Assembly (NCBI GenBank): GCA_001938485.1
Contig: MQRK01183883.1
Span: 19,079 to 73,577 of the forward strand
Reading direction: 5' to 3'
DNA from: Girardia tigrina
Taxonomy: Eukaryota
Length of the DNA: 54,499 nucleotides
Shown: positions 7,850 to 53,989 of the stretch, piece by piece
How positions within the stretch are numbered: position 1 is the first letter of the stretch
How the letters are laid out: every line of letters begins with the position of its first letter
Notes under the pieces: generated by a model
Database searches by the model: none
Told to the model about the DNA's origin: nothing
Seen by the model: the letters and a program-made list of their open reading frames with translations, nothing else
Position numbers and translations under genes: made by a program

Positions 7850-8250
7850 AATTTCGACGGTTTAAACTTCATCGTTAGAACAAATGATTTTTCAAACGAA
7901 ATTTACTTATATAGCGCAGTTAATGATTATGTAATCAATACGTCAACAGTACATCATTTAAAAATTCTCAACAAAGTTGTAGAGAATACAGTTTGAATGT
8001 TAATTTTAGGATCCAAAGATCTCATATATAACGCTTCACATGAGTCACTCTCTTCCAATAATTCTTAAATTGAGTACAAAGAATTTTAAAGTGTTGTGAA
8101 TTTATATATCCTTTAGAATGTCTTCTATGTCCTGCAATTTTACTTCCACCTTCATTGCGACTGTGTTCTTGGATTCTCTTACAGAGATGACATGAAGTCT
8201 CTCCAATGTATGTGGCGTTACACCCATTATATGTAAATTGGTAAATAAAT
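7850..8250 (-). mobile_element. Penelope-like element 3' end (GIY-YIG, C-terminus and hammerhead relic)
   Basis: Reverse strand: YQFTYNGCNATYIGETSCHLCKRIQEH, then EALYMRSLDPKINIQ; degenerate hammerhead core at 7851-7878. Confidence 0.8.
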
Positions 8251-13338: not shown

Positions 13339-16142
13339 CTACAAAATCTTTAAAATCCTTTTCATACTTAGGCATTCTCTTAAAACAATATTTGCCATTC
13401 TTTGTTGAAAACGCTGTTTAATCTTTGATTCTTCTCCTAATTCAATCTGATAGTATGCATTTCCCAGATCGATTGTACTAAAATATTTTGCTCCATTCAA
13501 CGTGTTTAACATATCATCCACATTTGGCATGGAAAATGCCTGTCTTACCGTAATTTTATTCAACTGTCGAAAATCGACACATACTCGAATGTCTTGTTTC
13601 TCTTTTTTCCATACACACACCAGAAGGAAGTTCCATGGAGAACTACACTTTTCAATTATACCGTTTTCTTTAAAATTTCTAATGGCATCCTTTAGTTTCC
13701 CTTCAAAATGTTGTGGCAGTTGATAAGGCTTCACTAAGACTGGTTCTCCCCGAGATTCTATTTTGTATTTCGTTAAGAAGGTTTTCCCAACATCCCACTT
13801 GTCAGCTATGAAAATTGATTTATATTCTGTTAATAATGTCATTAATTGGTTGTCAACTTTGGTGTCATATATTTCCTTAATTCTCTTTAGTCTGTCATCA
13901 TCTGTTGGACTTTCTCTTATCATCCATATATCACCTGATTCTATAGTTTCTTTCTTTAGTTTTATTCCAAATTTGTCTAAAAAGTAAATTCCTGCTTTCA
14001 TATCTGGATTGAGTTCTTTGACTACATAAAACTCTATAATTTTTTGTACTCCTTCTATTATTACTTTTAATTTAACGATTCCATAATTTATAAGTTCTGA
14101 ATCATTTGCACAATAAATGCGTTTACTCGTCTTTTATATGAACATCTTTCATACTTCTAAGTATATCTGCTTTAACAATATTTACTTTGGCACCGGTATC
14201 CAAAAGACATTCAACATTTATATTCTTTGTATTCGATCCTTGGTCTTCCATTCAATTTGTCATATCTAATATAAAGCTTTGATATTTCCAACATTTCTTC
14301 CTGTTTCAACTTTTTCGATTTTATCTTTAATTCCTTATCAAAACAGTCTGTGTCAAACTCTTCTTTCTAACATTCTATTTCACAAACTTCAAGAGGGGGA
14401 TCTTCCAACACACAATCACACATACATAACTGTAAAGTAACAACTTTACTTTCCCGAATGTGCAACAGTTTGTTGATGATATCACATCAACTCGAACAAT
14501 ATTGCATTATATGATGTAAGAAGCACACAAAATTGATATAAAAGTAATTTTGTAATTTTGTATTTTTTAAAATAAAATTTATTTAATATTTTTGTCTTCT
14601 TATCCTTTTTATATATAAAAAAATGAATGAATACAAAAATACCATTACATACACAAACACATACACAAACATTTTTATTTTTAGGGCAGCAAACTGATTA
14701 CCTCTCCTTGTGATCGTGAATCCTCGTTTCCCTGGTCTTTATCGTATACTTGTATATTATCTGTAAACATTATTTGCCTCGAGTTTTCTTCATTTGATCG
14801 TGTTTCCCCGTATTCGTTATAATCCTTGCCATCATACATTTCTGCAATATCATACCTTCGATTTTGATGCTTCTGTTGATTTCATGGGTTATTTGTTCTT
14901 TGCCATTTATTTTTTCTGGCATCTTGGTCTCTTTCTTTAAATCTATCCTTGTTCATGTAGCATTGAGTCATGATATGGCCATTTTTATTGCAATAAGAAC
15001 ACTTTATATTTGGACAGTTTCTTCTTATGTTTCTTTCTTTGTGATATGCCCAGGATTTTACAACTTTTGAATAGTTATTTTTTGGTTTTTATTCATTATT
15101 TCTTTGACTACTGTACCTATTTTCGAAATTTCTTTTTTGGGTTCGTTTTTATATTGTAGTTTACGTTTGCCTACCGCTTTCCATTCATCATGTTTACCTA
15201 CCGTATTGTATGCCGCAACTGTTTCTTCGTTTTCCATTTTCTGTAGTTCATACTTATTCGAAACTACATCTTTTATATCCTTTGTTTCGGTAGCTCCTCT
15301 CAATTTCAATTCTATTTTCACCTCAATCGTCAACCATATTCATGCAAATAAGGTTGAGCAGCTTTTTCTTAGAAAGTTTACTTTCTGTTAATATCGTTAC
15401 TAATTCTTCGACTTTTTTGAACATTTCTTCGTGATCTGAAGATCCCCACCGGAGATTTAAAATATCCTTCATTGTGTCAAGCAGAAATTTTTCTTTCACA
15501 AATGCCGTTTTCAGTTTTTCTTTATACGTATTTCCATCTGCTTCTGAAAATTTTGTGATAGCTGATGGAGTCATGAAGATCGTCACCAACACTAATGTTC
15601 TCACTTCTGTTATACCCACAATATCAGCATAAAGTTCGAAATTTTTTATGAAGTCATCTAATTTCGACTCGGATTCATCGAATTTTTCGTGTCCCATAAT
15701 GTTCGTTGTCACATGAGCTGTGGTCGCCATATTAACAAAATCAATATGAGGTTTACAATATTTATTAATATCACAAGCGCATTCACTATTTGACATTTTT
15801 CTTGATCAATATATTTCTGAATTCATACTAATTTTTTCAAAAAATGAAAATCATTTAATAAAAATTATTAATTAAAAAGATTCTAATTGGTTAAAATTAA
15901 ATCTAAACAGTTGTTTTTAAAAAGTACATATTAAATTAATATACTAAAATTTTAAATTACATAAATTTAAATATTACTTTCAAAATTTATTTTAAATCTT
16001 TTTACTTTAAAATTAAATTATATTATTTTTAATTAGTAAATATCAAAGAAAATACCAATCATCCATCTTGGTAAGAGAGGCACAATCCGAATCAACATAC
16101 AACATGCACAATATCAACAAACAATTCAAAAAATTCCTGACA
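13339..16142 (-). mobile_element. Ty3/Gypsy element B: 5' LTR, PBS, gag, protease and 3'-truncated RT
   Basis: LTR 16142-15730; PBS-like TGGCGACCAC from 15729; gag 15796 to about 14685 with zinc knuckle CSYCNKNGHIMTQC (15001-14960); slippery site GGGAAAC at 14732-14726; protease CLLDTGAKVN near 14200; RT motifs SSPWN, RVCVDFRQLN, FSTIDLGNAYYQI; broken before YxDD. Confidence 0.9.
14512..14671. mobile_element. Probable short solo LTR inserted in the pol 5' region of element B
   Basis: 160-bp AT-rich TG...CA segment starting TGATGTAAGAA (same start at 16349). Removing it plus 5 nt rejoins the -1 pol frame (NQFAALKIK-MQYCSS). Target-site duplication is imperfect. Confidence 0.4.
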
Positions 16143-16599
16143 ATAATAATGTGGATTTTGATAACATAGCATTAAAAATAAATGATTTATTTCTTCCTTA
16201 AATGTTGTTGTTTTTTGTTTCTTCACTTTTAAATAATCAGTTTTATAGACATACATTTTACCAAAAATCAACAAACATCGAGCACATCAAAAAAATAAAT
16301 GTAAATTAATAAAAAAGGGTTCATTTAATATAAATAAAATATATTTGGTGATGTAAGAAACAATAAGTGTGTAAATGATATTTACAGACATAAATTAATA
16401 TTTTATGTGCAAAAATAATAGAAAGCCAATATATATAATAAAGTTATCAATATAATTTTAGGTATGTACGGTGAACAGAATCTGATGTTTTTGGACTCTG
16501 AACAAAAACTATGAATAGCAAATTTAATACGGTTTAAAAATTTGATTATTACAGTGCTTTGCAAAAATATAATTTTTTTTATTCTTATTCCGACTTCTT

Positions 16600-18205
16600 T
16601 TATTCTTATTCTTATTTTTATTCTTATTCCGACATATTTATTCCGACATTCTGACATGGATTCATGCAAACCATAAAAATCATTGTTAGGAGAACTCACA
16701 CATTTGACAGAACATTTATTACATTCACAGTTTTGATCATCTCTATGACGATCAATAGTAATGCTTTCACTTAAATCCACCATTCAATGTTTAATACTTC
16801 TCATTCCAATCTGAACTAACGTGAAGTAAATTATTTTATTTAAAATATTTAATTTAAATTTTATTTGCTAAAATAAATTAATTTTTATAATTATTTTTAA
16901 CATTAATTTGATTTTAATTATTTAAAAATTTACAAAAATAAAAATTAAAAATTTGAATATTAAACCTAAATTTAAATAAATTAGTTTCAGATTATAAGAA
17001 TTAAAATATTGATCATCCATCTGATTAGGAGACGCACAATCCAAAATAAACACACAACATTTAAACATGCAAACACAACAAAAACAATTACACACCCCAT
17101 ATTCCTCACATCCCCCTCGATTTAAATGGATTTAGCCATTCCATATTTCTTATCAAAATTCTACCATCTTCTAGCTCCAATTCATAACTTCTTTCATGCC
17201 TTCAGCTTTTTACTGTGGCTGGACCCATTATCGATCTTTTTCTTTTGTAGCTTTTTCTTTTTTTATCAACACTTTATTTCCGTATGAAATATTCGTTTTG
17301 TCTCTATCGTATTTTCGCTCTTTTCTTTCTTATTACAACTCTGTTTCATAGTATCTTTCCACCAATGTCTTAGCTTCCTACCAAATATCATTTCTGCTTG
17401 TGAGATACCTGTGATAGCTTGAATTGTGCTGTTCATCATACCTTCTACTTCTGGAAAAATTTCCGTCCAATCTTTGTGGGCTTGATCTTTTATCCTTATG
17501 TTCATAGCATCTCTAATAGTTCTAAATTGTCTTTCAATGATGCCATTGGTATTGTGATGATAAGGACTGGAGTAAATTATTTCTGTTTTAAATCTCTTCA
17601 ATGTGTCTTTGAAGAGTGTCGATTCGAATGCTTCACCTCTATCCACATGTATCTCTTTTGGTGATCCGAATTTCCAAATCCATCTGTCCAGTAGTACCTT
17701 CGGTGCAGTTTTCTCATCTTGATGAATTACAGCATTTAGACTTATATACCTGCTAAATTGATCGATTATTGCTAATATATATTGATATCCATTTAAAGTC
17801 CTTTTAAATGGTCCGCAAAAATCCATAAACAGCTTTTGAAATAGTTCATCAGCAAATTGTTTAATAAAACTTTCTTTCGTTTTTGTGGTTAAAGTCTTTC
17901 TCTTTTGACAGTTTATGCAAAATTTTACAATTTCCTTAATGATCTCTCTCATATTAACCATATCAAAATCATCTTTCAAATATTTTTAAACCATTTTACT
18001 AGCTGCATGGCACAGCATCTTGTGAGCGTCTTCCACGAATTCTATCCTTGTGGTTCTCGGAATTTAATATTTGTTATCTATTGTTGTCAAAATATTGTCT
18101 TTCAGTATCTATATCTTTGTTCTTCCCATTCTAATATCTTCTCTGATCTGATTTATTTCGTCATTATCTTTCTGCCACTTGAACTCTTTTGATTCTTCGT
18201 CTAAA
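16600..18205 (-). mobile_element. Ty3/Gypsy element A: integrase, polypurine tract and 3' LTR
   Basis: Integrase ORF 17979-17266 (CINC zinc motif, DFCGP, IDQFSR, DRG, NGIIERQFRT); purine tract GAGGGGGA (17118-17111) directly precedes TGTGAGGAAT at 17110; LTR closely matches the copy at 22358. Confidence 0.9.
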
Positions 18206-19599
18206 GCCAAGAAAAGGAAAGTGATATTCATCGATTTGGAAAAGGCATTTGATAGTGCTTCAAGTGAAGTTCTGCGGGCCTGTCTGAAAAGATTCGGCTT
18301 GACCGACAAGATTCTCTACCTGATAGAGAAATTCCATGAAAGCTTTATTGCCTCTGTAGGAGATTTTGAGTTTCTCATGGATATCGGTCAGCTGTTGCGT
18401 TGTGGAATGAGTAAGTTACGCGAATTGCAGTCTGCAATTCAAAGTACCCGAGTTCCTCTAGCTCTGAAAAGAAGACTAATCGAATCAAGCCTTTTTCCTG
18501 CAGAATATTATGGGAGTGAGTGCTTGGCAGCAGCTGAAAAAGATGTAGCTCGACTACAAGCTTTTCATAATACCTTCACACGAACTGCTCTTGGTAAGGC
18601 TAAACTTGACAGAATACGTAATACGGATATTTCAATTGGTTTGCCCGAGGCACGTGTGGTACTGGTGAAACGGCGTATTGTATTCTATGAGTACAATAAA
18701 CGAAAAGGTGTACGTGAGGTAAAAAGAGTACTAAACTCTAAAATTGCCTCAGGAAATAGAAAAGCCAGCGACCATAAAAAGCAGTTGATGAAAGAGCGTA
18801 TCGCCAGCGATATGCTCTAGTTATTCGGTGGCCAAGAAGATATGGTCGAATACCAGGAATGCTTAAATGAGAGAAGAATTCTCGACACTGACGAGAAATT
18901 CAAACACCTAATCAAATAAACTGTGTCTGAGAAACTGATAGAAGTTATTGAACAATTAAAAGAGTACCCGAAAATGATCCAGCTGCATATCAAGAGTACA
19001 ATGCACGTATCCTTCTTGTTTGAAAGCTTTTTCAGAGCGGAAGAAACTAAGAAGACACATCGAAAACGTGCATACGCTCACGACGCCGCAGTGTCAGATT
19101 GGTAACAAACCTTTTCGGTATCCCATGGAAAATTGTCACAAGACATATAAAACGGATGGATTGTTAGAGACATTTATTGATTGATCACCGAACTCAAGGC
19201 AGTAATAGTGGTACTAGTGTTTCACAAAATAACGCAGATAGAAGATGTACAAAATCATTGAACCCGATCGCGATGCATGATGTGCTAGTGCCCCTCGATG
19301 GTATTTACTCATTGTATGAAATGTGTTTACACAGTCAAAGCTCTACAGAATCACGGCACGAGGGCTCATGATTTGTCCTTTCTGACTGGGAAACCAAAGT
19401 GTATCCTTGCGTTGAAAGCTTGCATTCTTGCATCTACAGCCGTGCGAAAAATTCAGTAGGCTCTGTATTGTCAATTTTTGGTTTCTACCCGATATAGAGT
19501 CTATGAATCACTACCCTGTACGCCAATGCTGGTACTATAGTCTCTACAATACTCAGTTATCCGTTCAATCAGGGGAGGCTTATTAATATCCTTCATCAC
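18200..19599 (+). mobile_element. 5'-truncated RTE-like non-LTR retrotransposon with internal RT deletion and a C2H2 zinc-finger tail
   Basis: FIDLEKAFDS...LKRFG, then a jump to YYGSEC...LQAFHNTFTR...DRIRNTDI (RTE-type thumb) with no YADD. Downstream frames encode CTYPSCLKAF...RHIENVH and two decayed fingers. Confidence 0.8.
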
Positions 19600-20070: not shown

Positions 20071-20826
20071 AATTAAATAAATTTAATTCGTAAATTTATA
20101 ACCAAAAGATGTTAAGACTTCATACAGTTCGATTAAGAGAAATACATCTGTTCCTAAAATCGAAGATTTTACAAATTAGAAATAACACAGTCATATTTTT
20201 AAAGATGAATTCATTTTGCCAAGACAAACACGTTTACTGTTATCTTTTAAAATTTGTAAAAAATTGAAATTTATTTTTGTCAAAAAAATTTCTAATTATT
20301 TTGAAAAAGCAATTTTAAATTCCAAGGTTATATTATACACTTTTAAAAGTTATATTTTAACGCTTTAATTATAAATGCATCTGTTTTTTCTACAATCAAT
20401 AATATGATAATAATAAAATTAGTGTCTGAAAAAAATAATAAAAAGTAATTAAATGCAAATAAGGCGACAGATTTCTGCACTGATAAATATTCAATTAAGA
20501 TATGACAGCAACAAAAAATTATCTTTTACATAATTGTAATAATTTTAATTTAACTCAAATATATTTTTCTAATATTATTTTGAATCAAAGTTCTTACTTT
20601 AAAATATATATCTAAAAATGCTTTAAATTTTTTAAATCATTTTGTTTAAATAATACGTATCGAAGAGAAAATATTAGCGGCAATTTAACGTATTATAATT
20701 TAATATATGATATTAAATAATCTATCATAAATGAATGATAGAAAAAGCAATAATAACATTTTTAACACTGGAAAAAATGTAAATTTAATAAAATTATAAA
20801 AATACAATTGATATCATCGAAAATAG

Positions 20827-21059
20827 GAAGTCAATCAAATGAAAGAAAACTTAGCAAAACTTTATAATTTAACTGATGAAGAAAAATCAGAAGAAAGTTT
20901 ATTGCAAGCTCGGATTGAAGAGCAGTCTCATTTAATTATGATGCTTAAGAAACGAGCCGATGAATATTTATTGAAATATCAGTCTTTAGAGAGAGAAAAT
21001 AAAGAATTAGAAGCGAAATTCGTCACTATGAATAATAAAAGTAAAGCCGATGACAAAAA
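20827..21059 (+). CDS. CCDC89: CCDC89-like coiled-coil protein, exon (EVNQMKENLAKL...ADDK)
   Basis: MKENLAKLYNLTDEEKSEESLLQARIEEQSHLIMMLKKRADE closely resembles the conserved CCDC89 N-terminal block as recalled (LxxLxxLSxEExSExxMLRSRIEEQSQLIxILKRRxDE). AG acceptor at 20825-6; phase-2 GTTGAT donor at 21060. Confidence 0.85.
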
Positions 21060-21108
21060 GTTGATTTTTAAGGAAATTCTACATTTATATAAACAGTGTT
21101 TATTGCAG

Positions 21109-21342
21109 ATATCGAGTAATCTACCAGAACTATGGGAAATTGACTCAAGCGTATGACGAAATGAAGGTGGAGCTCGACAATGTAAAGGAGATAAATGAAA
21201 AAATGAAACAACAAACCGATCATTTGAAATCAGAAATTTTATCTCTCTCAGAACAATTGGAAAATTATTCTGGTACTGATTTACTGAAAGAAGAAATGGC
21301 ATCTATGAAACACAAAAATGATCAATTAGAAATTGATATCAA
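21109..21342 (+). CDS. CCDC89: CCDC89-like exon (YRVIYQNYGKLTQAY...QLEIDI)
   Basis: Follows a 49-nt GT-AG intron (21060-21108); 234 nt, phase 2 at both ends, open coiled-coil frame; GTAAAG donor at 21343. Confidence 0.85.
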
Positions 21343-21639
21343 GTAAAGTTTTGGAGTACAGGTTTTATCGTTTTCATTATTGATGATTATGTTTTAGAAA
21401 ATTTAGTCACAAAAATTGGTTTTAGTTAATTTTAATAATCAAATTTAATATTATGTCGTTTTATTTCTTCGTTTTTTCCTGAAAACAGTCATTAAAACTA
21501 TTTATAAACAATTTGAATAGTGTGCAGTAATTTTAAAAACTATTAGGAGAGTCTCCTTTGAGACATTATTGATCAAATCATTTAATCCATCAATTAATTA
21601 TTGAAACAAACATCGCGATCGATTTGAATTTTGAAAATT

Positions 21640-22200
21640 TTCTAATGTTTTAACACAGACATGTCGACAATAATTGAATATCATCCTTATTTGCGACATG
21701 GATGAAGGTCGTTTCTCCATTTTCCCACTTAGAACAATCAAGTCAATCTCAAAAACAATCAAGAGTTTTATGAAGCATAAGTATCTCGAGAGGAACGATT
21801 TTTTATTTTATTACTAAATTTATTTTCCTTATTTTTAATGAAAAACAGAAATGCTTCAGAATGGAATAAGGGGCTATCGAGATTTTAATTAAATTTCTTC
21901 GAGCCACCAATCATTTAGCCTATCATCCAGGGATTTGGATCGAAAAGAAAGAGTGCTTTGTAATTTCTTTGCTCCAGTACTTTCGATGAAATATTAAGTT
22001 TTCAGTTGCAAATCACTCAAATCTTCTGTGACGAGATCTTTCACTAACCATAAATATAAATTAAATGTCTGATCTAAAGCAGAAATCGGTATTTTTGGTA
22101 TTTTATCATCGAAAAGTTTGTGCATTTAACTTGATCACATCAACATTCATTTTCGCTGACTAGCGATCAAAAGTTTGTAATAATTCTTAAAAATCAACAA
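21640..22200 (-). mobile_element. Decayed non-LTR (L1/Tx1-like) C-terminal fragment
   Basis: Reverse strand CSKWENGETTFIH resembles the CxxC...ETxxH motif; many stops. Confidence 0.3.
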
Positions 22201-22357
22201 ACGCATATTTCTAAAAATAATTTTTTAAATCACAGCAAATAAAAACTGCATTGATTGGAAAAAAGTTTTTTTCAGATCCAAATGGAGTTTTTGATTATTA
22301 GAAAGATATACCACTTTTCTTTATGCATATCTTGGAATGATAAAATAATGTAATGAT

Positions 22358-22859
22358 TGTGAGGAATTTTGGTGTGTTGATGTTTTTGAGTAGTGTTTGC
22401 ATGTTTAAATGTTGTGTGTTGATTTGGGATTGTGCCTCTCCTAACCAGATGGATGATTAATATTTGAATTCTTATTATCTCAAACTAATTTATTCAAATT
22501 TTTATTTTTGTAAATTTTTAAATAATTAAAATAAAATTAATGTTTAAAAATGATTATAAAAGTAGTTTTGTTTTAGCCAATAAAATTTAAATAATATATT
22601 TTAAATAAAATAATTTTCTTCAAGTTAGTTCAGATTGGGATGAAAAGTATTAAACATTGAGTGATTGATTTAAGGGAGAGATATACTATTGATCGTCATA
22701 GAGATGATCAAAACTGTGAATGTAATAAATGTTCTGTCAAATGTGTGATTTCTCTTAACAATGATTTTTTATGGTTTGCGTGGATCCATGTCAGAATGTC
22801 GGAATAAATATGTCGTTGTTTTATGTGTGAAAAATAAAAAGAAAAAATTCTTTTACACA
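22358..22859 (+). mobile_element. Solo LTR, TGTGAGGAAT family
   Basis: TG...CA, about 500 bp, high identity to the reverse complement of 16640-17110. Confidence 0.85.
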
Positions 22860-23004
22860 AAAATCTTTATTGGATTAAAAAAAACTTCCCAAATTTTGTT
22901 TATTAAAACAAAATTGTTGATTGATTTTTTTTTATTGCGTTTCTTGTTTAACATTTATTTTTGGTCCCCAGTCGCGAGGATTAATAAGATGGGGGACATA
23001 AAAA

Positions 23005-23300
23005 AATACTAATGAGTAGGGGGATGAGTACTGGAATGGACGGCCTTGAATGCATTTACACGGAAGGCTGAGTCCAGAACGGGGCGTGGACAACCTGCGA
23101 TGGAGGTGTCGAAAGAAATGCGGCCACGTGCGGTTGGCTGTTCCTTGAAAGTAGTTAGGTCCTTATCCGATAGTGGATTTTGCTACAGGATGTCTTGGGT
23201 GAATAATGGTTCAAAGTCCAATGAAGCCAAATACATATTTGAGAGACTGTCTCTGTTTTATCTGTGAAAGAATTCAACAGCATGGATGGACAGAGGGTAA
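23005..23300 (-). mobile_element. Gypsy pol fragment (just upstream of the integrase zinc-binding domain)
   Basis: GC-richer island; reverse strand FDTSIAGCPRPVLDSAFRVNAFKAVHSSTHP resembles the typical DTSTGxPRPxVPxxFRxxxFxxxHxxxHP motif. Confidence 0.6.
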
Positions 23301-23539
23301 GAATAATATTACTGCACATCTTTCAAGATTTTGAAAGTTTATAGAAGAATTTGTCGTGTGAAGATATTGTAATTGTCATGTCCTAAAATTAATGTTCAAA
23401 TGGTAGTCTCAACTAGTTTATAGAGAATATTTTATTAGCATTATTTCATATAATCAATTACCGATTCGTGATTTTGCATTTCAATCGATTAGTTACGTGT
23501 TACTATTTAAATTTTTTAGCAATATTTATTATATTTATT

Positions 23540-24740
23540 TTTATATTTACAGCTTTCAAATCTATAAACAACGTATTGTATCGAGCACTTCACGAGAAAT
23601 TACCGGTTTTGAGTTAAAGTTTAAATGACATCCACATACCTGATCAATTGACACAAACTATTTCATGCCAATTATTTTTATTGTGTATCAGTGAGGATAA
23701 ATCAATTATATTACTTGGAACAATAAGTAATTTACAAATGTTATCCAGCAATAACCATTGGTTCATGGACGGTACATTTCGGGTTAAACATCCCTTTTAT
23801 AAACAAATCTTTACAATCCATGCACTGCTCCAAAGTAAAGTACTTCCATTAATTTATTGTATTCTGATAGATAAAAAAGCTGAAACATACACATCAGTTT
23901 TTCGTAAAATTCGAAATTTATGTCCGGAGCATAATTTGATTCTTACGCCAAATTTAATCACATTGGATTTCGAGAAAGGTTTAATAGTTGCGTTACAACA
24001 GGAGTTTTCGCAAAGTCTTCTACGCGGTTGTTATTTTCATTTCTGCCAAGCGGTATTTAGACAAGTTCAGAGATTAAGTTTTAGTGTCGATGATGGTAAT
24101 AATCAGGAACTTAGAACGAAAATACGTATGCTTATAGCTTTGGCGTTTGTTCCTGAATAAATTGTTCAACAAACTTTCGACAGACTGAGGAACGAGGCAC
24201 CGGTAATTATTAGACATTTATTCCAGTACTTCATCCAGCAATGGTTATTAAAATTTAAGAAAGAAATGTGGAATATGTATGGCATCAGACGGTACACTAA
24301 CAATGATGTTGAAGAGTGGCACAACCATTTCAATAATTTAGTTGTTAAGCAACACCCGAATATTTATGATTGAATATCATGCATAATAAAGAAACAAGGA
24401 TTTACAGAAACATTGATGACACAAATTTATGCTGGGCAAGTTATTAACAAAACAAATAAAAAATATAATTTTATAAGTCAACGTGTTTCAAACTTGCAAC
24501 TACGTTTTGATAATGGTGAAATTGGTATCATGGAGTTTATTCGTGGAATTTCTTTCAGTTTAAACACACCAATTGCATTTTGACAGTGTATTTAAAGTTG
24601 GAATTTGCTTAAAATAAAATTTTATATCTAATTGACTTTTTTTCTATTTGGAAAGTAAATCGTTGTTTTGAGAATCGCTGTTATGGGATTCGCTGTTTTG
24701 GGATTTGCTGTTATGTAATTCGCTGTTATGGGGATATTCT
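23540..24740 (+). mobile_element. MULE (Mutator-like) transposase pseudogene with right terminal repeat array
   Basis: WFMDGTF, QIFTIHA, LPLIYCIL.DKKAETY, DFEKG, GCYFHFCQA, TNNDVEEWH; ends in 15-bp tandem units (ATTCGCTGTTATGGG) at 24658-24740. Confidence 0.9.
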
Positions 24741-24863
24741 ATATTTATACTCTAAAGTTTAAATATTTTTAATAAAGATTATTTTTTACTTCTCTCTGAC
24801 TAATTCTACAAAATACAAATATTTATTTATTTATCATTTATTTTTACAAATTCTGTCATTCAG

Positions 24864-25098
24864 AAGTTTAAATAAGAAATATTCGCAAAGCTTGTCACAA
24901 CATCAACTCGAAATCAGCAAAGCTAACGAAACTATTAATTCTTTAAACGAAAAACTGAAAGAAAAAGAAGCAAATTTTAGTAAAACTATTGCAGAATCCG
25001 AGAAACTGCTCGAAAACCTAAGGAAAGAAAATACGGAATCAATTAATGAAATCGGAACTCTGAAAGGTACTGTAGATTCACAAGGCCGGATTATAAAA
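24864..25098 (+). CDS. CCDC89: CCDC89-like exon (SLNKKYSQSL...SQGRIIK)
   Basis: TTCAG acceptor; phase-2 entry matches the donor at 21343; coiled-coil heptads; phase-0 GTAAAT donor at 25099. Confidence 0.85.
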
Positions 25099-25352
25099 GT
25101 AAATATTATCTATTTATTCTATGAATTATTTTTCTATTATTTTTAAGAGATTATTATGTCCAAATTGTATTTTATTTTAAGAATTTGATGATTTTCCTGC
25201 ATCAATTTAGATCCCGTTTAAAATAATTAAGATATTTAACATTTTTAGAAATAGAGAAAAACTTTTTTATATTTAATTATATTTTACAATGATAAAATAA
25301 ATTTATTAACATTATTGATAAAAATAAAAAGCGAATTGATGTATATTTACGT

Positions 25353-33099: not shown

Positions 33100-33670
33100 T
33101 ATAGTGATCCGAAACTACATTAACGATTCTTATAGTAAGTAGCAAAGGAATAGAAACATGTGAAGATAAAATCAAATCGATTAATGAAGCACCGGTTCCA
33201 AAATGTGCAACTCAATTGCGTTCTTTCTTGGGTCTTGCCAATTACTACCGGAGATTTATCAAAGATTTTGCTTAAATATCAAAGCTTTTATATGCAGCCA
33301 GTGTCGCTAAAGAGAAATTTTACTGGTCACAGGAGTGTGCAAACAGTTTTGATGAACTTAAAAAGTCTTTCTACAAGTCCGGTATTATGCTTCCCTAATA
33401 TTAACCAAAAAATGGTGCTAGATACAGATGCCAGCTTCAATGTTATTGGAGAGGTATTAAGTAAAATTCAAGAAGATGGATCGGAACGGGTGATAGCTTA
33501 CGGATCAAGAACCCTAAGTGAGTATGAAAAGGGCTACTATGTTACCAGAAAGAAATTGCTAGCATTAAGAGATTACATGCTGTATTTCAAGCATTATTTG
33601 TATGGAAAAAAAGTTCTTGGCTCGTATCGATCATAAAGCACTTTTATTTATGTCCCAGACAAGCAAACCA
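33100..33670 (+). mobile_element. Gypsy RT thumb/RNase H fragment
   Basis: QLRSFLGLANYYRRFI, LDTDASF, VIAYGSRTLS, FKHYLYGKK, DHKAL across frameshifts. Confidence 0.85.
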
Positions 33671-39278: not shown

Positions 39279-41272
39279 CACTTGAACCAAGATTTAAACG
39301 GTAGATCGGTTCTTGAAAAAATTGTGTAATTCTAAATCTAATTTTTTACACTAAAAACCGTGTAAATCGAAAAAAACATTTAAAATAACTATTATTTAGT
39401 GTGTTTAATAATTTAATTCATAAATTTTAACGAACTCAGTTACGAACTCATGAAAATACAAGTGTTCAATTATTGTCATCACTGTCATCAGCTATTAATA
39501 TTTTCTTAACCGGCACGTTTTCATTTTCATCATTCGATATTGTTTCAAGTGGTTCTGGTCCTACCGTTAATAAATCTTTTACAGTTTCATGTGGCTGAGA
39601 CTTGGTAATGAAATCCGTAATGAGCATTTGTGTTTTTTTAGTTAGATTTTTATAGATTTCTTCATATTCAGCTAAAAATTGATTAATATTTCGCTGGAAC
39701 CGCAGAGCTCGTTCAACATTAGTGTCATGTTGCATAAAATGATGACATTCTTTTCGCGTAAATTGAATTCCTTCATGTACGACTTTAGCTGCAAATTCAA
39801 TTGGTTCGATTTCCTCATTATAATCACTATCTTGAAGAATTGTAATATTAACCATAGCAACCAAATCTGCCTCATCGAGTTCTTCATCCTTCATTAGTTC
39901 CACAAGTCTGTCTCAGTCAAATTATCGATACCTTCTGCTCCAACTGTTTGTACCAACTCAAAAATCTAAGAATATTCATGTCCCAATGATTCAGCAGTCT
40001 TATGTTCAACTACACCATTCTTTAAAAAGGACGGCAGTAACCCATGCCTTCTTATTAGTCATCCAATAAACAAGTAGGGTTTGGACATTAATACCTTTAA
40101 ACGCAAGTGGTGTTTTTGATTTGTTAATAACTAATAGTTTAATTCTATGATCACCTGAAGTGCTGCTACAGAAAAGAATTGTAATCCGATCTTTCGCTGA
40201 ATTATGGCCACTAGCTGTTTTGTGACCTTTAGCTAAATAGGTTCTCTTTGGTATTTTTTCCTGTCTCGTAAGAATTGAAAACCTGGTGAGCACTGTATGA
40301 ATTAGCGGTAACAATTTCATCTAATTTTGCTGGATATTTTTAAGCTGCATTTACATCACCAGATGCAGATTCATCTTTTATAGTTAGATTATGTAAAGTG
40401 TCGTTTTGAATATGTGGAACGAACTGTGACTGGCTGAAAATGTTGGTTTCTTTTCAACTGAAGATGTAGATGGGGACTGTTCTTGATTTTTTTCATAAAT
40501 CCTCAAAATCTTATTTGTGCTTGCGTTCATATCAATTGTAACCGTTTTTGACTTTGAACATCTATGCACAACATTAATGCCTTTATAATCATTTCAATCT
40601 AAATAACTCTCACATAAGAAGTTGTGCAGTCATTGCATTAGTTCCAGCTGATACACTTCTTCTAATGGAGCTCTCATTTTTTTCTTATTGTGGCTTCATT
40701 CATGGAATACGATTTAGCAACGTCTGTTATTCTTTCTCCATTACTTAGACGATCAAGAATTTTAATTTTGGTTTCTAAGATGATATTTTTTCTTTTCAAC
40801 TGTCGTTTCAGAATTTCCTTCGACATGGCTCAGCTTGAAAAATTTTACTTGAATTATGAATTAAAATGGTAAACTGTTTGTTACTATAAAATAACTTGCA
40901 GATTAAAAAATCTGACACAAAATTCAAAGCCTACTATCGCTTTAACGATAGAAATTCATTCTAATAAAATTTGTTCTTGATTAATATCACACACCATAGT
41001 AACTTTAAGAAATTCAGCGTTATATTCGGTGTATAAATTGTTGAGTCAGATTGGAAATACAGGCTGTATAGTGTGTATAGTGGTTAGATATTTAGATAAA
41101 ATTTTTATAAAGAAAGTTTATCGTCTTCAAAAATCTAATAGGAACTAAAACTGAAATAAATAAAAACCATAATCTACGGCTAATATGAAAATACATACAT
41201 ATTATGGAAAACGAGAAACCGAGTAAAATTGAAAACGTGTAAAAAAATACCGCGTAAATCGGCGCTCAAGTG
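39279..41272 (-). mobile_element. Tigger/pogo-like transposon, decayed
   Basis: TA-flanked imperfect TIRs (CACTTGAACCAAGATTTAAACGGTA vs CACTTGAGCGCCGATTTACGCGGTA); CENP-B-type HTH (KRKNIILETKIKILDRL), AKDRITILFC, LLVINKSKTP, NKKAWVT..LFKEW; acidic tail. Confidence 0.9.
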
Positions 41273-43411: not shown

Positions 43412-43508
43412 ATTTCAAAGTCAAATTTTTAAAGTTAAAATTATAACTATCGGAGAGTTTTTTTGGCACTTAAGGCTTTTGGCCACATCCTCATGTAACA
43501 TTATTCTA

Positions 43509-44838
43509 CAATGCGTTCCAAAAGTCTGTTCGCAGCCATTGAAATTTTGATTTATGCTATTTATTAAATTTTTCAATTTGTTTAAATGCTTTAATTTAAA
43601 TAATTTTAGTAAATTTAAAATTGAAATATCAAGACCATTTTTTTAAGATGAATTAATTAAATGTCTATCTTTTAGATTCAATGACAACTCGAAATATATA
43701 TATATAAGGTTTAGGATTATTATTGTAGAATTAATGAACGAGGGTCATTCAACGGGTCGGATACAAGAAATTATGAAGGTTAAGCATGGTATTATTGTTT
43801 CAAAGCAATGCATTCAAAAAATTATACATAAGTTCAAGACATTAGGTACATATGAAGATAAAAACGTAGTGGACGACCTTCAAAATTACCAAAACGTTCT
43901 GAAAGAATTATTCGCCGTATATGCTTGAAAAATAGGCGCATGTCGATAAGTAAAATAACAGGAGCTTTCAATGCAGCTGGAATGATACATGCATCACGAA
44001 GTACAGTGAATAGAATTTTGATAAAGTACGGCTTAAAAAGTCATTATGCTGTTTGCAAGCCTTTATTAAATGGAAAGCAACGAAAAAGAAGAGTTGAATG
44101 GGCTTGGGATAAACAAAATTGGGACATCGATAAGTGGTTGAATGTAGTTTCTAGCGATGAATCTATGTTCCGCACATATAGCCACACTCGTAGCGAAATC
44201 GTTAGAAGGTTTGACAATGAAAGGCTTAGTCACACTTGTACTAAGAAGGTCCTCCAACACGGTGCCCAAGTTCATGTATGGGGATCTTTCTCCAGATTTG
44301 GTGTTGGTATCTTTAAACGGATAAACGGAAATTTAAATTCAAAGAACTATCAAGTCCTAATTGTCAATGACATAGACATTACAGGGCAATGCTTGGTATT
44401 CCCTCTTCCAAATTTTATATTTCAGCAAGACAATGCGCTTTGCCATCGATCAGCATCAACAGTGTCTTTTTTGAAAACAAAGAAGATAAATATTCTTGAT
44501 TGGCCTGCCAACTCACCAGATGTAAACCCAATTGAGAATTTGTGGGGTATTATAAAGAGAAAAATAAATAATATGGATACTTTGAAATCAGAGAAAATGT
44601 GGATAGAAATACAAAAGTTATGGTACAACATACCAAGTTCTTTATGTTGTCGACTTGTCGATTCGTTGCCGCGAAGGGTGTCTTCAATCATCAAGATGAA
44701 AGGATACCACACAAAATATTAAAAATAACATTTTTATTTGTAAATATAATATTTACTTCCACTTCATCGTCTTTTTACTTAGGAATTTTATATAAGTGAT
44801 GATTTTTATGGGTGCGAACAGACTTTTGGAACGCACTG
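43509..44838 (+). mobile_element. Full-length Tc1 transposon (DD34E) with two 5' frameshifts
   Basis: About 31-bp TIR CA(A/G)TGCGTTCCAAAAGTCTGTTCGCA with TA TSDs; SSDES, QQDNA, NPIEN with 34 residues between the second D and E; frameshifts near 43700 and 43860. Confidence 0.97.
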
Positions 44839-45698
44839 TATAAATTTATTCTTAATAAATTTTATTTTCTAGTTAATTTTGTATTCAAAATCAGTAAATA
44901 TTAAATCATATCGACACTGTTTATTTTTCACCTGTCATTAATAATAATTATAAATATATTTCGTACAAATTGAAAGTGCATTATACATGTGCGTAATAAA
45001 TCATTTTTTAATACACTCATCATTCTTTTGATACGGCAACTTTAGAACAAAATAATGTAATAAAGTTATATATTTAAAAAGATAAAGTTAAAACGTTAAA
45101 ATCGAAATTTCTATAAAATATATCATTTATTAGTCACTTTTTAAAATATTTTTTTCTATTTTTGTACTTCTGAATTACCATCCCCATTCACATAACTGGT
45201 TGACCACCAGTGACTTGGGCAAATTAAAAACAATTGAACATTAAAAAGAGACATTAAAATAATGATATCTAAAAAAGAGACAAAAAGAATTGTAAATTGC
45301 ATTTCTGAATGAAGAGTAATTATTATTTTGTATATATAAATAGATTTTTATTATTTTAAAATTTGTGGAATTTATGTTCTGTCAAAATTAGACAACTTTT
45401 ACTTAAAAATAATAAACAGATTGTCAAAATTATTAAACATACTAAACATTTTTTAAAAAATATTAATCAAAATTGTAAATCAGATTTACAAAAAAGCTTT
45501 CAGGTGTACCTTTCGAATATAAAGGGTCTTTCTTACACAGTTAAGTGGAAAAAATTGCATATTTAATTTTCATTGATTTATCCAATTAATATGTGACAAA
45601 ATTGTGCACATTCTAATTTTATTTATTACTGTAGAAGTTCAAAATCATGAACTTTTGGACTCTTAATTTCATATTTAATGTATGATTGTTTATTTTAG

Positions 45699-47230: not shown

Positions 47231-47689
47231 ATGCATTCATTTTTATCCAAAGATTTATGGATCAAAAAATATATTTACAAAATTTTTGCTTTAGTACACT
47301 GCGGTATATACTTTTTCGATGTGACAGTCGTTACACTTTCAAATTTGAATGATAATTTGATTCATAAACTAATCGTCAATAAATATTTATACTTTAAATC
47401 AATATTAGCACAATGACTGTATAATATATGAGTTGAATATTTTAATAAATGAAAACTAGTATCCACGTAATCTAACTATTTGGAAACGTCGGAAATAGAA
47501 AATACATGTTATTAAAAACTTAAAGATATCTTATTCTCTTTGGTCTTGATTTATCGGTAATAAATAAAGAAAAATAAATTATAAATATTATTTGTGTGAA
47601 TATGTCGTTTAAATCATTAAAGCATAGTAGCAGGGGGAAAATATATGTTTTGGACCCATCGATAATTGAACTCCCCAGAAGGGGGTTAC

Positions 47690-47935
47690 CCATTGCCATG
47701 GCTACGGTTCTGATTGGTTGGTGGTCCCCTAGCAACGGTCGAGATCACCCAAAAAACACTTCTGATTGGTCGGTGGTCCCCTAGCAACGGTCACCATCAC
47801 CTTAGCAACGGTAACCAAGGGACCGTTTTAATTAGCAACGGATATGGTAATTCAAGGCAGTTATAACCCTGGTAACGGTAACGGTAACTGTATTCATAGC
47901 AACCATGACCCTTTCCTTAGCAATCGTATAAAAAA
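47690..47935 (+). promoter_or_regulatory. Homotypic cluster of RFX X-box-like sites with CCAAT boxes and a TATA-like motif
   Basis: Five exact TAGCAAC sites, ATTGCCATGGCTAC, a 33-bp direct repeat containing TGATTGG and GTCCCCTAGCAAC, and TATAAAAA near 47927. Confidence 0.5.
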
Positions 47936-48328
47936 GTGCTAATTGATTTCTGCACAGTACCAAAATGTGCTATTCGATATTTTTAAAGTACTAATCAATA
48001 TTGCACATTGTGCCGTATATTTTTAATGTGCTAGCACAGTACTTTTCAAGCTGCACATATGGCAAAGTGCAAAAATCGATACATAAAATTTTCAAAAGTC
48101 AAAATCGATACCACGTGTTTGATACACATTTTGATTTTCTATCTTAATATGCAATTATATTCATATAATTGATTATTTTATATTTATTATATAAATTATA
48201 TTGATTATTTTGATTATTTTTTCATATAATTAATAAAATGTGCAAATTTACACAAAATACACATTGATTTTAGAGATACAAGAAAGCAGAATATCAATAA
48301 AGTCCTGATGCACTTGAATAGAAAGCCA

Positions 48329-48512
48329 TATACATACATTCAGATTCCATATCAACATTTTCGAAAAAGGGCTGAAAAATTATTATTTTCGAATATTTCT
48401 GAAATTCTCAAAAAAGTGCTTAAAAATTGATTTTTTCGTATATATATACGAAAAAAATCAATTTTTAAGCACTTTTTCGAAAATGTTGATATGGAATTTG
48501 AATGTATGTATA
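48329..48512. repeat. Long palindrome / nested inverted repeat
   Basis: Loop-less near-perfect palindrome 48411-48477 centred on CGTATATATATACG; outer arm 48329-48391 is also complementary to 48449-48512. Confidence 0.9.
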
Positions 48513-50088
48513 AAAAAAATATTAAATTGTGAAAATTGTTCGATTCTGGAAAAATCCAGTTTGGAAGAGAATGTTAATTGTAATATTTTTTTATCCGATA
48601 TTATTTTGATGATTGTGAAAGGAGAAAAAATTACCTTGAGTTTTGTTTTGTTGGAGTAATTTGAGATACCTGTAAATATGAGTGTGTTTTTGAGTGATGA
48701 AATTAAATTCGAAACGTGACTTAATATCGTTTTCAATTGATTAAAAAAAGTGAATTTCTTTTCTGGATACTGAATTGTGCTAATCGCGATGTTGAGAAAA
48801 ACCGCAAATATTGAAATTTCAAAAACATTGAAAGATACGATTTTCGATGCGCCGATTCTTCTCGTCGATATTATCAAACTCGAATCGATTTTAGATCGAA
48901 ATTTGAATAGAAATAATCAAATAAACGGCGCAGTGTTTCTGTGTGATCAACGAATAGAGAATTGTTCCAATAAGATTGGTTTTTACAAAACAAAATGTGA
49001 ATCAATCAATTCAAAAATCGATACTGAAATGGTTAAAGTATTTTGTGAAAGATTCGAAAGATTTAATGACAAATTGAATTCGATAAACGTTAGTTTTCAA
49101 ATGCTTTATCTATTCAGACCATCATCGACTAAATGCACGAAAAACATCCGATATAATGCAATCGATTGTCGGGCCGGATTACTGGCGTTGATCGCCGGCA
49201 ACGATGTGGATTTCTGCATTGTCTCCTCGGGCGAGAGAGCGAATATTGAATCGGTCGACTTGAGGGACAGGCTCGTGAATGTCGATCCGATTTAGTGGTG
49301 TTAGAAATTGAAAGAAGGGCAGTTTTATTAGATGTCGACAGAGAGACAAAAGAGGACGGCGCAAGATTAAGAAAAAAGTCAGGCATATAAATATTGCCGA
49401 GTTAGAAGCAGTCGTCAAGGTATTAACTTTATGTGTAAAGTGGGGAGTGATTGAGATTACGGTGAAATGTGATAAAAAATCGGTGGTGTCGTGGATAGAT
49501 GATACGATATCTAATATATCGAAATTAAGTACTGTTGCCTATTCGGAATTACTTATTAGACGACGTCTGACAATTATTATGGAAATTTGCGACGAATTTA
49601 AGATTAGGTTAAAGATAGAGTTTGTGCTAAGTCATTTTAATAAGGCTGATGAACTGACCAGAATACCGAAATTCCTAACGAAAAGTTTCTGTGGTTTACG
49701 ATGCCAGTGAGATTTAGAAGTTAGAACAATTTCATCAAATATGTCATTTAGGTGCGAACCGAATGAAGTATTTGGTGAAGAAGAGAATATTCAGGTGATT
49801 GATAAGGATATATTAAAATTAATATGAGGATGTCAACAGTGCCAATCTATCGATCTGGTGCCGGTTAAATGGGAGAAAGGCAGTTTATCTGTGAATGAGA
49901 ATTGGTTTAGATTGGCTATTGACGTCACAAAATGTATAATAGAAAGTTTTTGAGTTTGATTGATTGTAAACCATCTCGGTTTGCAATTTGGAGGGAAATT
50001 CGAGACGAAAGTAGTAGTTCGATTGTACTAGTGATGTACTCAATATTTTGTGAAAGGGTATGGATAATATCGAAATAAAATTATGAAT

Positions 50089-50218: not shown

Positions 50219-50354
50219 AGTGAAAAATATAGATGGTTTATTTGTTGTTGCTTAACTGTTGTAAAAAAATAAATGTAAATGTTATGAAAAAATAATAAAC
50301 AATTTAAAATGACTTTGTATTTTACATTTGTTTAAATATAGCGGACTCCTCATA

Positions 50355-51574
50355 CAGGGTGCGGCAGCTATTTGAGAACACGTAATATAGACACCATATC
50401 TTTTTGTGTGTTATAATTACATAATTTTATTTTTGCTGGTAGACATGGCAGAAGCTACTCTTACGAATGAAATGAAAAGGCATGCAGTTATTGTGTCATT
50501 AGCTGCAGGACACACCGAAATTGCTACATTTTTGAAAGTCGCCCGGTCGTTTGTTTTTAAAGTTCGTACAGAATTAGGAGCTGCGAAGGGTGATGGGGCT
50601 GAAGCTTCGCAACGGAAACAAGTTTGTAGACGTTNNNNNNNNNNNNNNNNNNNNNNNNNNNNNNNNNNNNNNNNNNNNNNNNNNNNNNNNNNNNNNNNNN
50701 NNNNNNNNNNNNNNNNNNNNNNNNNNNNNNNNNNNNNNNNNNNNNNNNNNNNNNNNNNNNNNNNNNNNNNNNNNNNNNNNNNNNNNNNNNNNNNNNNNNN
50801 NNNNNNNNNNNNNNNNNNNNNNNNNNNNNNNNNNNNNNNNNNNNNNNNNNNNNNNNNNNNNNNNNNNNNNNNNNNNNNNNNNNNNNNNNNNNNNNNNNNN
50901 NNNNNNNNNNNNNNNNNNNNNNNNNNNNNNNNNNNNNNNNNNNNNNNNNNNNNNNNNNNNNNNNNNNNNNNNNNNNNNNNNNNNNNNNNNNNNNNNNNNN
51001 NNNNNNNNNNNNNNNNNNNNNNNNNNNNNNNNNNNNNNNNNNNNNNNNNNNNNNNNNNNNNNNNNNNNNNNNNNNNNNNNNNNNNNNNNNNNNNNNNNNN
51101 NNNNNNNNNNNNNNNNNNNNNNNNNNNNNNNNNNNNNNNNNNNNNNNNNNNNNNNNNNNNNNNNNNNNNNNNNNNNNNNNNNNNNNNNNNNNNNNNNNNN
51201 NNNNNNNNNNNNNNNNNNNNNNNNNNNNNNNNNNNNNNNNNNNNNNNNNNNNNNNNNNNNNNNNNNNNNNNNNNNNNNNNNNNNNNNNNNNNNNNNNNNN
51301 NNNNNNNNNNNNNNNNNNNNNNNNNNNNNNNNNNNNNNNNNNNNNNNNNNNNNNNNNNNNNNNNNNNNNNNNNNNNNNNNNNNNNNNNNNNNNNNNNNNN
51401 NNNNNNNNNNNNNNNNNNNNNNNNNNNNNNNNNNNNNNNNNNNNNNNNNNNNNNNNNNNNTATGTACGTGTTAATATATGTAAAATTTTAAATTGTAATA
51501 AATGTTATTTTTCTGTTGTATATTAATTTTTTGAACTTTATGTCATTTTGTTCTCAAATAGCTGCCGCACCCTG
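50355..51574 (+). mobile_element. Tc1/mariner superfamily element, probably DD37D (maT); interior is an assembly gap
   Basis: Perfect TIR CAGGGTGCGGCAGCTATTTGAGAACA with TA TSDs; N-terminus EMKRHAVIVSL...EIATFLKVARSFVFKVR. Appears nested in an older TA-flanked MITE (about 50339-51744). Confidence 0.85.
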
Positions 51575-53989
51575 TATATCGAAGTGGCACTTTCCAAAAC
51601 TAAATTTCGGTATAGCCGTAGTTCGATATAGCCATAGCATCACCTTCCATTACCTAAGCACTGATATTTAGTATGTACAATAACATATATTCGATATATC
51701 CGTATATTCTATATATCCGTCTTCGAAAACACAGAGTGCACTGTATATAACGATGTGTTATTAATGATTTTTGAATTATAACAAATAAATTGAAAGAAAT
51801 TCAATATTTCAAAATCTTTCGTTCTTGCTAATAATGAAACCGATAATAAAAATTGACACGAAAAGTCTGATGACAAAACGGCAAAAAGTCAGGTGTACTC
51901 GTCGATCGTCAGTTTCATTGAAATTGAAAATTCACTAATTGTCGATAAATCGAATTTGGATGCGGCAAATTTATCTGCGAACGTAAAATCTCTTTTTTCG
52001 CTTTTGGTATATTTGACGGAGAAAATCCATGATTTTCCTCCGATCGATCAGACAAAAATACGATACAAAATTCTACAGTGGCTCCTTGAGCACTTGTGGT
52101 GGATAATTATGTATCATTTTAGGCGAATGAGTTTATGGATTTTATGGATCATTGGAAGGTTGGGTTAATATGTCTGTCTAGTAATTGAACCAGCGTAATG
52201 GAATTGTTGAGCGAAATCATAGAACCATCAAAAGAATTGCCGCTAGATCAAATATATCAATGGATGAAGCGTTTTGGTTGTACAATAATACACCGTCTGT
52301 TGGTAAAGAAACTCCAAGTCGAATGTCAAATAATTATTCAAGTACCAGGCCTAAAGATATAGCAGTGGTGACGAAGGACGATTCAACAAAAAAGGGTAGA
52401 GCTTTTTGTGAGTATTAATTGGTGTGGGTCAAACCAAAATTCATTACAAGTTGTACTAAACAATGGCTAAAAGAGACGGTAATAAAAAAAGTTGTCGTGT
52501 TGGAAATATTTGGTTGAATGTGATGATGAACGTTTTCCGAATCATTTTAGCGATTTTCGGCCAAGAATAGTGGAACCAGTAAACCAGATGCATCACACCA
52601 GATGCATTGGGATTGAATCCAGCTCTGAGAAGGATGAAGTGGAGACTGGCAAAGAGGTGCGCATTTGAAGGAGACCGAAATATTTAAATGATTACATCAC
52701 GGAGTTAGATTCGGATGATGATGAATCTGGTCGGGATGTGGAAATGAATTAATGAAATTACAGAGTTTTGTTTAAATAATAACGAATTGTGATGATTTTT
52801 ATTATATCGTGAAATTTGTAATCTTAAGGGTTTGTATTTATTATTTATTGCTATCAGTGTTACACAAAATAATTCATGGAATTATCATCCAAAACTTCAA
52901 TAGCATTCAAATTATCAGAACTAGTGAATCCTAGACGTTCTAATAGAAGGGCGTCAGCATAAATATCCTAATAAATATTCTAATAACAAAATTGACATTT
53001 ACATGTTGAGTTAAGTGAACTTCACACAGTTTATGTAGTATCAGTGTATTGAACTTAGTAAAGTAACTAAGCATTTTTATATGGTCCTAAGTTATGATTC
53101 ACCTATTTTTTTCGAAATCAAATTAAGCAATCAGCAATCCTGCAAATTATGATGTTCAAAAATGACTTTAATTGGTCCAAATCGACTTCAGCTGGTCTAT
53201 GAGTGCAAGATGAGGCTTGAAGTAAAATATTTTAGGAATGAATTTTTAAGAACTAATATGGGCAGGAGCACTTAGTTAGCACATGTGTATCGTATTCAGT
53301 GTGCATCTTTATTCAGGCTTCTACAGTAGTTTTACCTTTTTAAAAATGGAAAGGCAAAACATGTTTAAAATGTACTTTGTTATCTTCTATGTTCAAAATA
53401 ATACCAGACAAAACAAAATACATCCGACCAATTCTAAATCATTAAAGAAACTGAACAAGTCAATATTTCAGAGGAACAACATGTTGCAAAATATAACACT
53501 TAATCGAACGTTGAAAAGGACAGATGCAATGTGTTATGGGAAACTAAAAGTACTTTCTGGACATCCGAAAAGGCTTTTGCTCAGCTATAGGATTGTTAAT
53601 GGCTTCAATAGACGCAAAAAGTTAAAGATAATATAACTTTTTAAATGTGTAGATGCTTTCTTATTTTGTTTTTAAACTTGACAAATCAATTCCGGTTTCT
53701 TTGTGATTTACTACTTTTACTCATGTACCTCTGGAAATAAACTTCTTAGGTACTTTGAAGAATAATCATTGATATTTTAGCGACAACTTGAAGAAATTAT
53801 AAAAATTGTCTTTATTTGATATGCAATATTGATCAAATATTAGTAAACTAGAGGACTCTTCGAAAGGGACACTTAACATTTGTGAAATATCCGCCCTAGT
53901 AAAATAACCGAAAACCAAAAATAAAAGAGAAACTTTTTGCAAACAGTAATTACTGATGAAATTTAATAGTTCTTTTAAACAATTCTGAA

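Follow-up and report, generated by a model that had tools for sequence, protein, structure and literature searches.

In an AT-rich contig of the planarian Girardia tigrina, a short GC-rich island is crowded with words that resemble binding sites of RFX factors and with CCAAT boxes, which raises the question of what kind of sequence carries them and whom they serve. The island lies in a window of 54,499 nt, the whole stretch of DNA analysed here, to which all plain positions refer. A preliminary description had read it as the terminus of a large mobile element whose promoter is plugged into the RFX program of the host and which may double as an intronic enhancer of the neighboring gene.

The motif cluster itself is real. 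All five exact TAGCAAC sites that had been claimed are present (47730, 47782, 47803, 47833, and 47897), a word which occurred 0.024 times on average, and never more than twice, when the island was shuffled 20,000 times with dinucleotides preserved; any 7-mer at all reached at least five copies in 72 of the 20,000. Half-sites of the form RGYAAC/GTTRCY number 10 versus a shuffled mean of 0.82 (maximum 6), so that motif density exceeds that of shuffled sequence by both measures, a check that had been named beforehand. The elevated GC content (46% versus about 20–25% in the flanks), the near-palindrome ATTGCCATGGCTAC, and the duplicated 33-bp module, with one mismatch and a period of 52 bp, were likewise found as described (Table 1). 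Calling the cluster a dense X-box cassette is correct for the half-sites only; with the consensus GTNRCY(N0-3)RGYAAC, which agrees with the one generally given for RFX factors, no strict full X-box occurs in the window copy, whereas 25 of 29 counted loci of the family to which it belongs contain at least one. The abrupt start of the island exists, but alignment to other copies places it at 47629 and not at 47626, and the end given as 47935 is none, because the element continues to 48445. The TATA-like motif is present at the end of the island (47927) but is not a family feature: the five bases at this position read CGTAG in 54 and CGAAG in 14 of 105 distinct copies, and the form seen in the window, which also occurs in locus L028, is outside the ten commonest.

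Table 1. Features of the window copy and its surroundings (positions in the 54,499-nt window)
Feature	Position	Strand	Remark
Visible exons of a coiled-coil host gene (presumably CCDC89-like)	20826..25101	+	last found exon ends in a GT donor
Outer 817 bp of TIR, truncated copy	47629..48445	+	71–81% identity to other copies
Element terminus, AG-start motif	47629..47645	+	differs from the usual AGTAGG at one position
Array of RFX-type half-sites and decayed X-box palindromes	47685..47925	+	family period 21 bp; anchored family profile matches GTTRCCATRGYAAC
Decayed palindromic X-box	47692..47705	+	perfect palindrome in many other copies
33-bp Y-then-X module, copy 1	47708..47740	+	
48-nt X-then-Y module, 25-nt spacer	47724..47771	+	orientation, length, and spacer as in the HLA-DRA XY box
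33-bp Y-then-X module, copy 2	47760..47792	+	one mismatch versus copy 1
TATA-like motif	47927..47933	+	not conserved in the family
Fold-back hairpin	48329..48512	.	turning point of the TIR at 48445, end at 48512; private to the window copy
Unrelated repeat family with decayed RNase H frame	48522..49710	+	adjoins the broken end, outside the element

Judged by its relatives, the island is almost certainly the outer end of a terminal inverted repeat (TIR) of a family derived from Polinton/Maverick elements, and makes up the outer 310 bp of that TIR (about 1.7 kb long in a complete copy). The assignment to a Polinton/Maverick-type terminus made in the preliminary description is borne out by TIRs, AG...CT ends, a 6-bp target site duplication (TSD), multiple copies, and a linked protein-primed family B polymerase (pPolB). 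A first look at the genome yielded 3,368 island candidates, of which 40 were scored, and single-copy status is thereby excluded. In 29 other loci that were fetched (L028–L030 being mutually identical), homology runs from 47629 to about 48445 at 71–81% identity, and 23 of them have the terminal motif at the same place amid unrelated flanks. A 22-letter terminal pattern matches the genome exactly 11,365 times (control, 0) and gave 0 matches in viral contigs. The start AGTAGG was read in 67 of 84 distinct termini and CCTACT at right ends, again with unrelated flanks; the family ends are AGTAG...CTACT. Six copies have both termini facing each other, and five of these are bordered by a perfect 6-bp TSD, namely ATAAAT, ATAGAC, and TTACAT in the gene-less copies L016, L032, and L284, and AATATG and ACGGTT in the coding copies C224054 and C191476; L039 is without one. 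The TIRs of C191476 (1–1730 versus 7331–8992) are 84% identical, and the stretch from the window matches both ends. TIRs, AG...CT ends, and 6-bp TSDs, described as hallmarks of Mavericks in the available part of PMC8097293, are what the family has in common with Polintons/Mavericks (PMC8097293, PMC6431247, 10.1101/2023.08.22.554363, as far as their accessible text goes).

Other element classes were considered and rejected. A Helitron or Helentron, which would show no long TIR pair and no 6-bp TSD but a RepHel, is excluded by the 1.7-kb TIRs, the 6-bp TSDs, and pPolB. An LTR or DIRS promoter, prompted by an RNase H frame 1.4 kb downstream, was dismissed because this frame belongs to another repeat family (1,344 candidates, 87–94% identity; RVT_3, E 2.4e-6), which does not succeed the other copies of the present one.

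What lies between the TIRs was read from the copies bearing a TSD. Three of the five are gene-less (1.2, 2.6, and 3.7 kb) and two are coding (8,992 and 10,170 bp); these two are the only coding copies seen end to end, and both have broken frames. Each carries one long gene, comprising a Cys/His-rich N-terminus, an EndoVII domain, and pPolB, and one small divergent gene, and no long frame is left unexplained. The pPolB expected in the flanks was thus found between the TIRs (PF03175, together with EndoVII, PF02945); its domain is 46–57% identical to animal Polinton-type polymerases, one of them named adintovirus PolB, and PolA/B/C-type motifs are visible. The Cys/His-rich frame upstream of it gave weak zinc-finger matches (E 0.015–0.085). 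In 29 of 30 loci the sequence past the polymerase stop matches one and the same gene-less right arm, and the TIR of the window is reached within 1.5 kb of the stop in 7 of the 30, many contigs stopping earlier. Outside the genome, pPolB retrieved one distant viral contig, without TIR.

The small gene matched no Pfam family and has 13 relatives in a representative library; P0003 and P0005–P0013 are distant (30–57% identity), and none of the eight looked up carries a name. Its protein model (pLDDT 77.8) superimposes on the Enc34 single-strand-binding protein (SSB) with a VIA Z of 9.2 (rmsd 2.9, 109 residues aligned) and on T7 gp2.5 with a VIA Z of 8.6 (rmsd 2.8, 110 residues); the top four fold matches, Enc34 SSB, DUF2815, gp2.5, and ASFV CP312R, span Z 9.2–7.9, the fifth reaching 5.2. 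In a viral library the model matched giant-virus proteins at an E of 7.5e-8, and Foldseek against the PDB ranked the same proteins first, but at an E of only 0.03. From the model, the small gene is predicted to encode a T7 gp2.5/Enc34-type SSB with a gp2.5-type OB fold. A GIY-YIG nuclease, about which Pfam said nothing, was ruled out by the fold. The predicted SSB has 1,738 candidates in the genome; of 26 informative loci, 13 have it divergent from pPolB, the TIR follows it in 13 of 18, and several polymerase copies (L031, L043, L091, L100) are without it. In metagenomes it returned a single weak match of 31 residues.

Integrase and capsid, which had also been expected in the flanks, were found inside the TIRs of neither end-to-end coding copy. 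Queries for INT, PLA2, MCP, and ATPase taken from the same genome matched none of 130 TIR-bearing loci, and ten further contigs contained no integrase, PLA2, capsid, or ATPase inside the TIRs. There is a good chance that the architecture is one of two genes dependent on a helper; the assembly is fragmented into 255,254 contigs, and a full-length master carrying integrase may have escaped it.

Candidate helpers are abundant. Full Polintons occur in the same genome as separate elements with AGTAGT ends and a different polymerase (36–41% identity or no match); their capsid-bearing families encode a PLA2-integrase, an A32 ATPase, and a DJR capsid (C188483, C218067, C237301, and C206357; loci L081–L082, L086–L087, L095–L098, and L149–L151), and integrase candidates number 14,413 genome-wide. 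At the ends of the capsid-bearing Polintons no RFX cluster of their own was found, and Polintons in general can hence replicate without the array; the gp2.5-like SSB was not found in 15 full-Polinton loci. At three loci (L096, L098, and L182) an RFX-type end adjoins full-Polinton genes, and these look like nested insertions; the integrase next to such an end in L182 (one of 30 integrase loci) was rejected as a linked gene since a 230-bp TIR piece is joined there to the middle of the PLA2-integrase frame. RFX-type ends in or beside full-Polinton sequence (L073, L096, L098, L142, L182) are about as frequent as chance predicts given the density of both repeats. Gene-less elements of ~300 bp with the AGTAGT ends of full Polintons exist as well (L082:1930-2260, L087:2590-2898, L149:3864-4199, and L150:6569-6875).

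The architecture of the array points to RFX. A profile of 621 units, anchored only on AAC and the three letters following it and hence non-circular, shows at the eleven preceding positions G/A, T, two mixed positions, C, C, A, T, R (86%), G (92%), and Y (96%); in its letters this is the RFX palindrome. Near-perfect X-boxes average 6.1 per 260 nt in the family (both strands) versus 0.08 in shuffled sequence. Successive half-sites are most commonly spaced by 21 nt (212 cases), that is, two helical turns, the first lies at a median of 55 nt inside the element end, and the array is retained in the gene-less two-ended copies L016, L032, and L284. The RFX and NF-Y sites are predicted binding sites; the host genome encodes RFX1-like and RFX5-like DNA-binding domains.

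Conservation of the motifs is less straightforward. Within the island, 6 of 44 positions in the X and Y cores are variable versus 71 of 168 others, and none of 245 slid masks is as low in variability; these window-defined and slid-mask tests replaced a McDonald–Kreitman-like contrast (P 1e-5) that was partly circular. In the inner, motif-poor part of the TIR 31 of 170 positions are variable (18%, versus 14% in the cores), so that conservation of the cores does not exceed that of the inner TIR; misaligned repeat units may, moreover, make the spacers look more variable than they are.

The spacing of the X site to the inverted CCAAT, or Y, box is a further regularity. RGYAAC ends 24–25 nt before the CTGATTGG box for 101 of 168 ATTGG boxes; counted by island, 60 of 102 have this arrangement. 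Genome-wide, 6,365 exact modules have a gap of 24–25 nt versus 6 with one of 19–20 nt, which shows the abundance of the family and not selection. Of 129 cases, 32 have an intact unit 4 nt before the Y box and 95 have an intact one 24–25 nt before it. Pairing Y with the X site downstream of it, as in the preliminary description, picks up a gap of 13 nt that is conserved and is the commonest Y-to-X gap of the family (44 cases); it is the upstream X at 24–25 nt, however, that has a known counterpart, the XY box of HLA-DRA with 48 nt and a 25-nt spacer (second row, 47 nt and a spacer of 24; supplement of PMC4381081), whose spacers were compared with that of the window module and counted by eye. 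With a period of 21 bp, the chance that a gap of 24–25 nt arises by phase alone is roughly 1 in 10. As in the MHC class II element described in the accessible portions of PMC4381081 and PMC4889920, an X1-type site is followed by an inverted CCAAT on the same strand after 24–25 nt; unlike there, the modules are repeated in tandem in a mobile element, and their listed spacers, read for CRE-like words, show no clear X2/CRE site. The resemblance must be convergent or stem from an old RFX–NF-Y geometry.

What, then, does the array do? That it is the promoter of the element, as first proposed, is not supported. The genes of the coding copies start in the middle of the element and read toward the TIRs, their central intergenic stretch contains no CCAAT and no RFX half-site, and the TATA-like motif is not conserved; the array is therefore not a proximal promoter. 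That it sits a short way inside both ends, and that gene-less copies retain it, point instead to a role at the ends. From the motifs, the array is quite probably bound by RFX and NF-Y of the host to the benefit of the element; that it would license the ends for copying, in the manner of an auxiliary origin, is our leading reading, at about even odds. The auxiliary origin in the adenovirus ITR carries sites for the host transcription factors NFI and Oct-1 just inside the terminal repeat. By the proposed mechanism, RFX dimers and NF-Y would occupy the phased sites, which start about 55 nt from each terminus, and would prevent nucleosomes from covering the ends. The full Polintons, which are abundant and also have AGTAG ends, would supply an integrase that excises and integrates the element in trans, and the element's own polymerase and SSB would copy the excised linear DNA from its ends as at an adenovirus origin. 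The process would be favored where RFX and NF-Y are plentiful and would be of most use in the germ line. We infer such germ-line activity of the element; in planarians, according to the part of PMC12660999 available, RFX motifs have been reported for cilia modules and NF-Y for neurons, not for the germ line. Binding of RFX1 and RFX3 to the D sequence of the AAV ITR, and RFX sites in the enhancers of HBV and polyomavirus, are described in the accessible text of PMC5760533.

The main rival to licensing of the ends is a long-range RFX/NF-Y enhancer of the two central divergent genes, timed to ciliated or germ cells and without direct origin role. The X–Y geometry equals that of a known enhanceosome, RFX sites act in viral enhancers (PMC5760533, accessible text), the central intergenic region lacks RFX and CCAAT sites of its own, and contigs of four RNA-labelled runs span 30 of 30 coding-region bins, although transcription, strand, and tissue cannot be read from contigs. 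The sites, however, lie 3′ of both genes, about 3–6 kb from where these start, and the array is found at both ends and also in gene-less copies, where there is nothing to activate; an enhancer is the less probable reading, but a serious one. Subterminal repeats of DNA transposons usually bind a protein of the element itself, and the 21-bp units could accordingly be targets of an element-encoded or helper protein, such as the integrase or the N-terminal zinc fingers weakly matched in the polymerase frame, their likeness to RFX sites being incidental. This we consider improbable, since chance would then have to account for perfect 14-bp RFX palindromes, for variation that tracks R and Y in the RFX consensus, and for a second host motif placed at a known spacing.

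The array might also be a neutral minisatellite, one chance X-box multiplied by slippage during replication of the TIR and carried along. The widely varying number of units (islands of 283–598 nt) and the cores being no better conserved than the inner TIR would fit. That the spacers have split into several types while cores and the 24–25 nt gap stayed, and that sites adjoining the Y box have decayed selectively, would not, and make this origin very improbable. The composite picture, a satellite of Polintons without capsid and integrase that encodes pPolB and SSB, borrows its integrase, and recruits RFX and NF-Y through X–Y modules like those of MHC class II genes, is put forward tentatively and is, taken as a whole, rather unlikely to be right in every part.

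The window copy itself is ordinary, inert debris: it keeps 817 bp of one TIR, and its interior and right end are lost. Neither the window nor 25 kb of flanking contig (8.5 kb of it N; contig base 9079 onward) yielded a partner end or a gene of the family. The fold-back at 48445 (z −14.6) at first resembled a parvovirus-like hairpin end, a reading that was dropped because none of 70 other stretches reaching this point folds back.

An intronic enhancer of the host gene, which the preliminary description had considered, finds no footing here. The gene encodes a coiled-coil protein, which we take to resemble CCDC89; a homology search found no homolog among 117 candidates. The last exon located ends 22.5 kb ahead of the island, with none found after it, which leaves an intronic position conjectural, and the island is one of thousands of copies, with 3 near-perfect X-boxes versus the family mean of 6.1. 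Co-option of this particular copy as an enhancer of the neighboring gene is most improbable: one intact X–Y module is left and changes private to the window fall on 1 of the 37 conserved core sites and on 9 of the 116 other sites (non-significant, P 0.45), but the copy is truncated, depleted of X-boxes, distant from the last found exon, and set among many decayed repeats. Several other features share the window. An inverted pair of ~450 bp (16630–17099 and 22370–22815; 84–96% complementary, 5.3 kb apart) brackets the first two visible host exons, a Tc1-type transposase frame of 286 codons (43862–44722, +) lies between TIRs at 43504–43555 and 44792–44843, and an element with perfect 29-bp TIRs extends across an assembly gap (50352–51577). 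Fragments of a decayed LTR-retrotransposon (RT, integrase, RNase H), a LINE-like RT, a MULE, and DDE_1 are located at 13339–18000 (−), 33154–33636 (+), 18152–18820 (+), 23618–24373 (+), and 40006–40320 (−); a 103-codon frame (51857–52168, +) gave a weak Pfam match to PTPA (E 2.2e-4, below the cut-off).

Set beside known systems, the family shares with Polintons a protein-primed family B polymerase with an inserted EndoVII/HNH-type domain, adintovirus PolB being among its closest named matches. Unlike Polintons, it showed an integrase, capsid, or ATPase in none of the copies examined, it carries the predicted gp2.5-like SSB, and it ends in AGTAGG rather than (AGT)2; its coding copies measure 9–10 kb and its TIR about 1.7 kb, while the sources, as far as available, quote 13–25 kb for Polintons and TIRs of 46–1,447 bp for those of vertebrates. 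Like the AAV ITR D sequence (PMC5760533, accessible part), it has host-factor-type sites just inside the terminal repeat of a linear DNA replicon, but about ten phased predicted sites plus CCAAT boxes instead of the one or two of AAV and adenovirus. Capsid-less linear replicons with replication functions only between TIRs are also known as eukaryotic pPolB linear plasmids (PMC10583447 and PMC11071308, in the parts accessible, the latter of which does not use the term SSB); unlike these, the present family is nuclear, is integrated in thousands of copies with TSDs, has a polymerase of the animal Polinton type, and lacks an RNA polymerase.

In open-access text no report was found of RFX sites in Polinton TIRs, of a Polinton with pPolB and SSB only, or of host factors acting at Polinton ends (Repbase and subscription papers may differ); the words "polinton" and "RFX" occur together, without relation, in the accessible text of PMC11464507. 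If true, the reading presented here would add a replication-only, helper-dependent form of Polinton that stands between virus-like elements and linear plasmids, and the family offers a testable case for host factors at Polinton ends. The X–Y spacing offers a direct test of whether RFX–NF-Y cooperativity exists beyond vertebrates. Should the satellite reading be true, it would have seeded more than 6,000 X–Y modules in one invertebrate genome, and the RFX–NF-Y spacing rule would far predate adaptive immunity. Thousands of such modules could, in turn, titrate RFX or create ciliary or germ-line enhancers.
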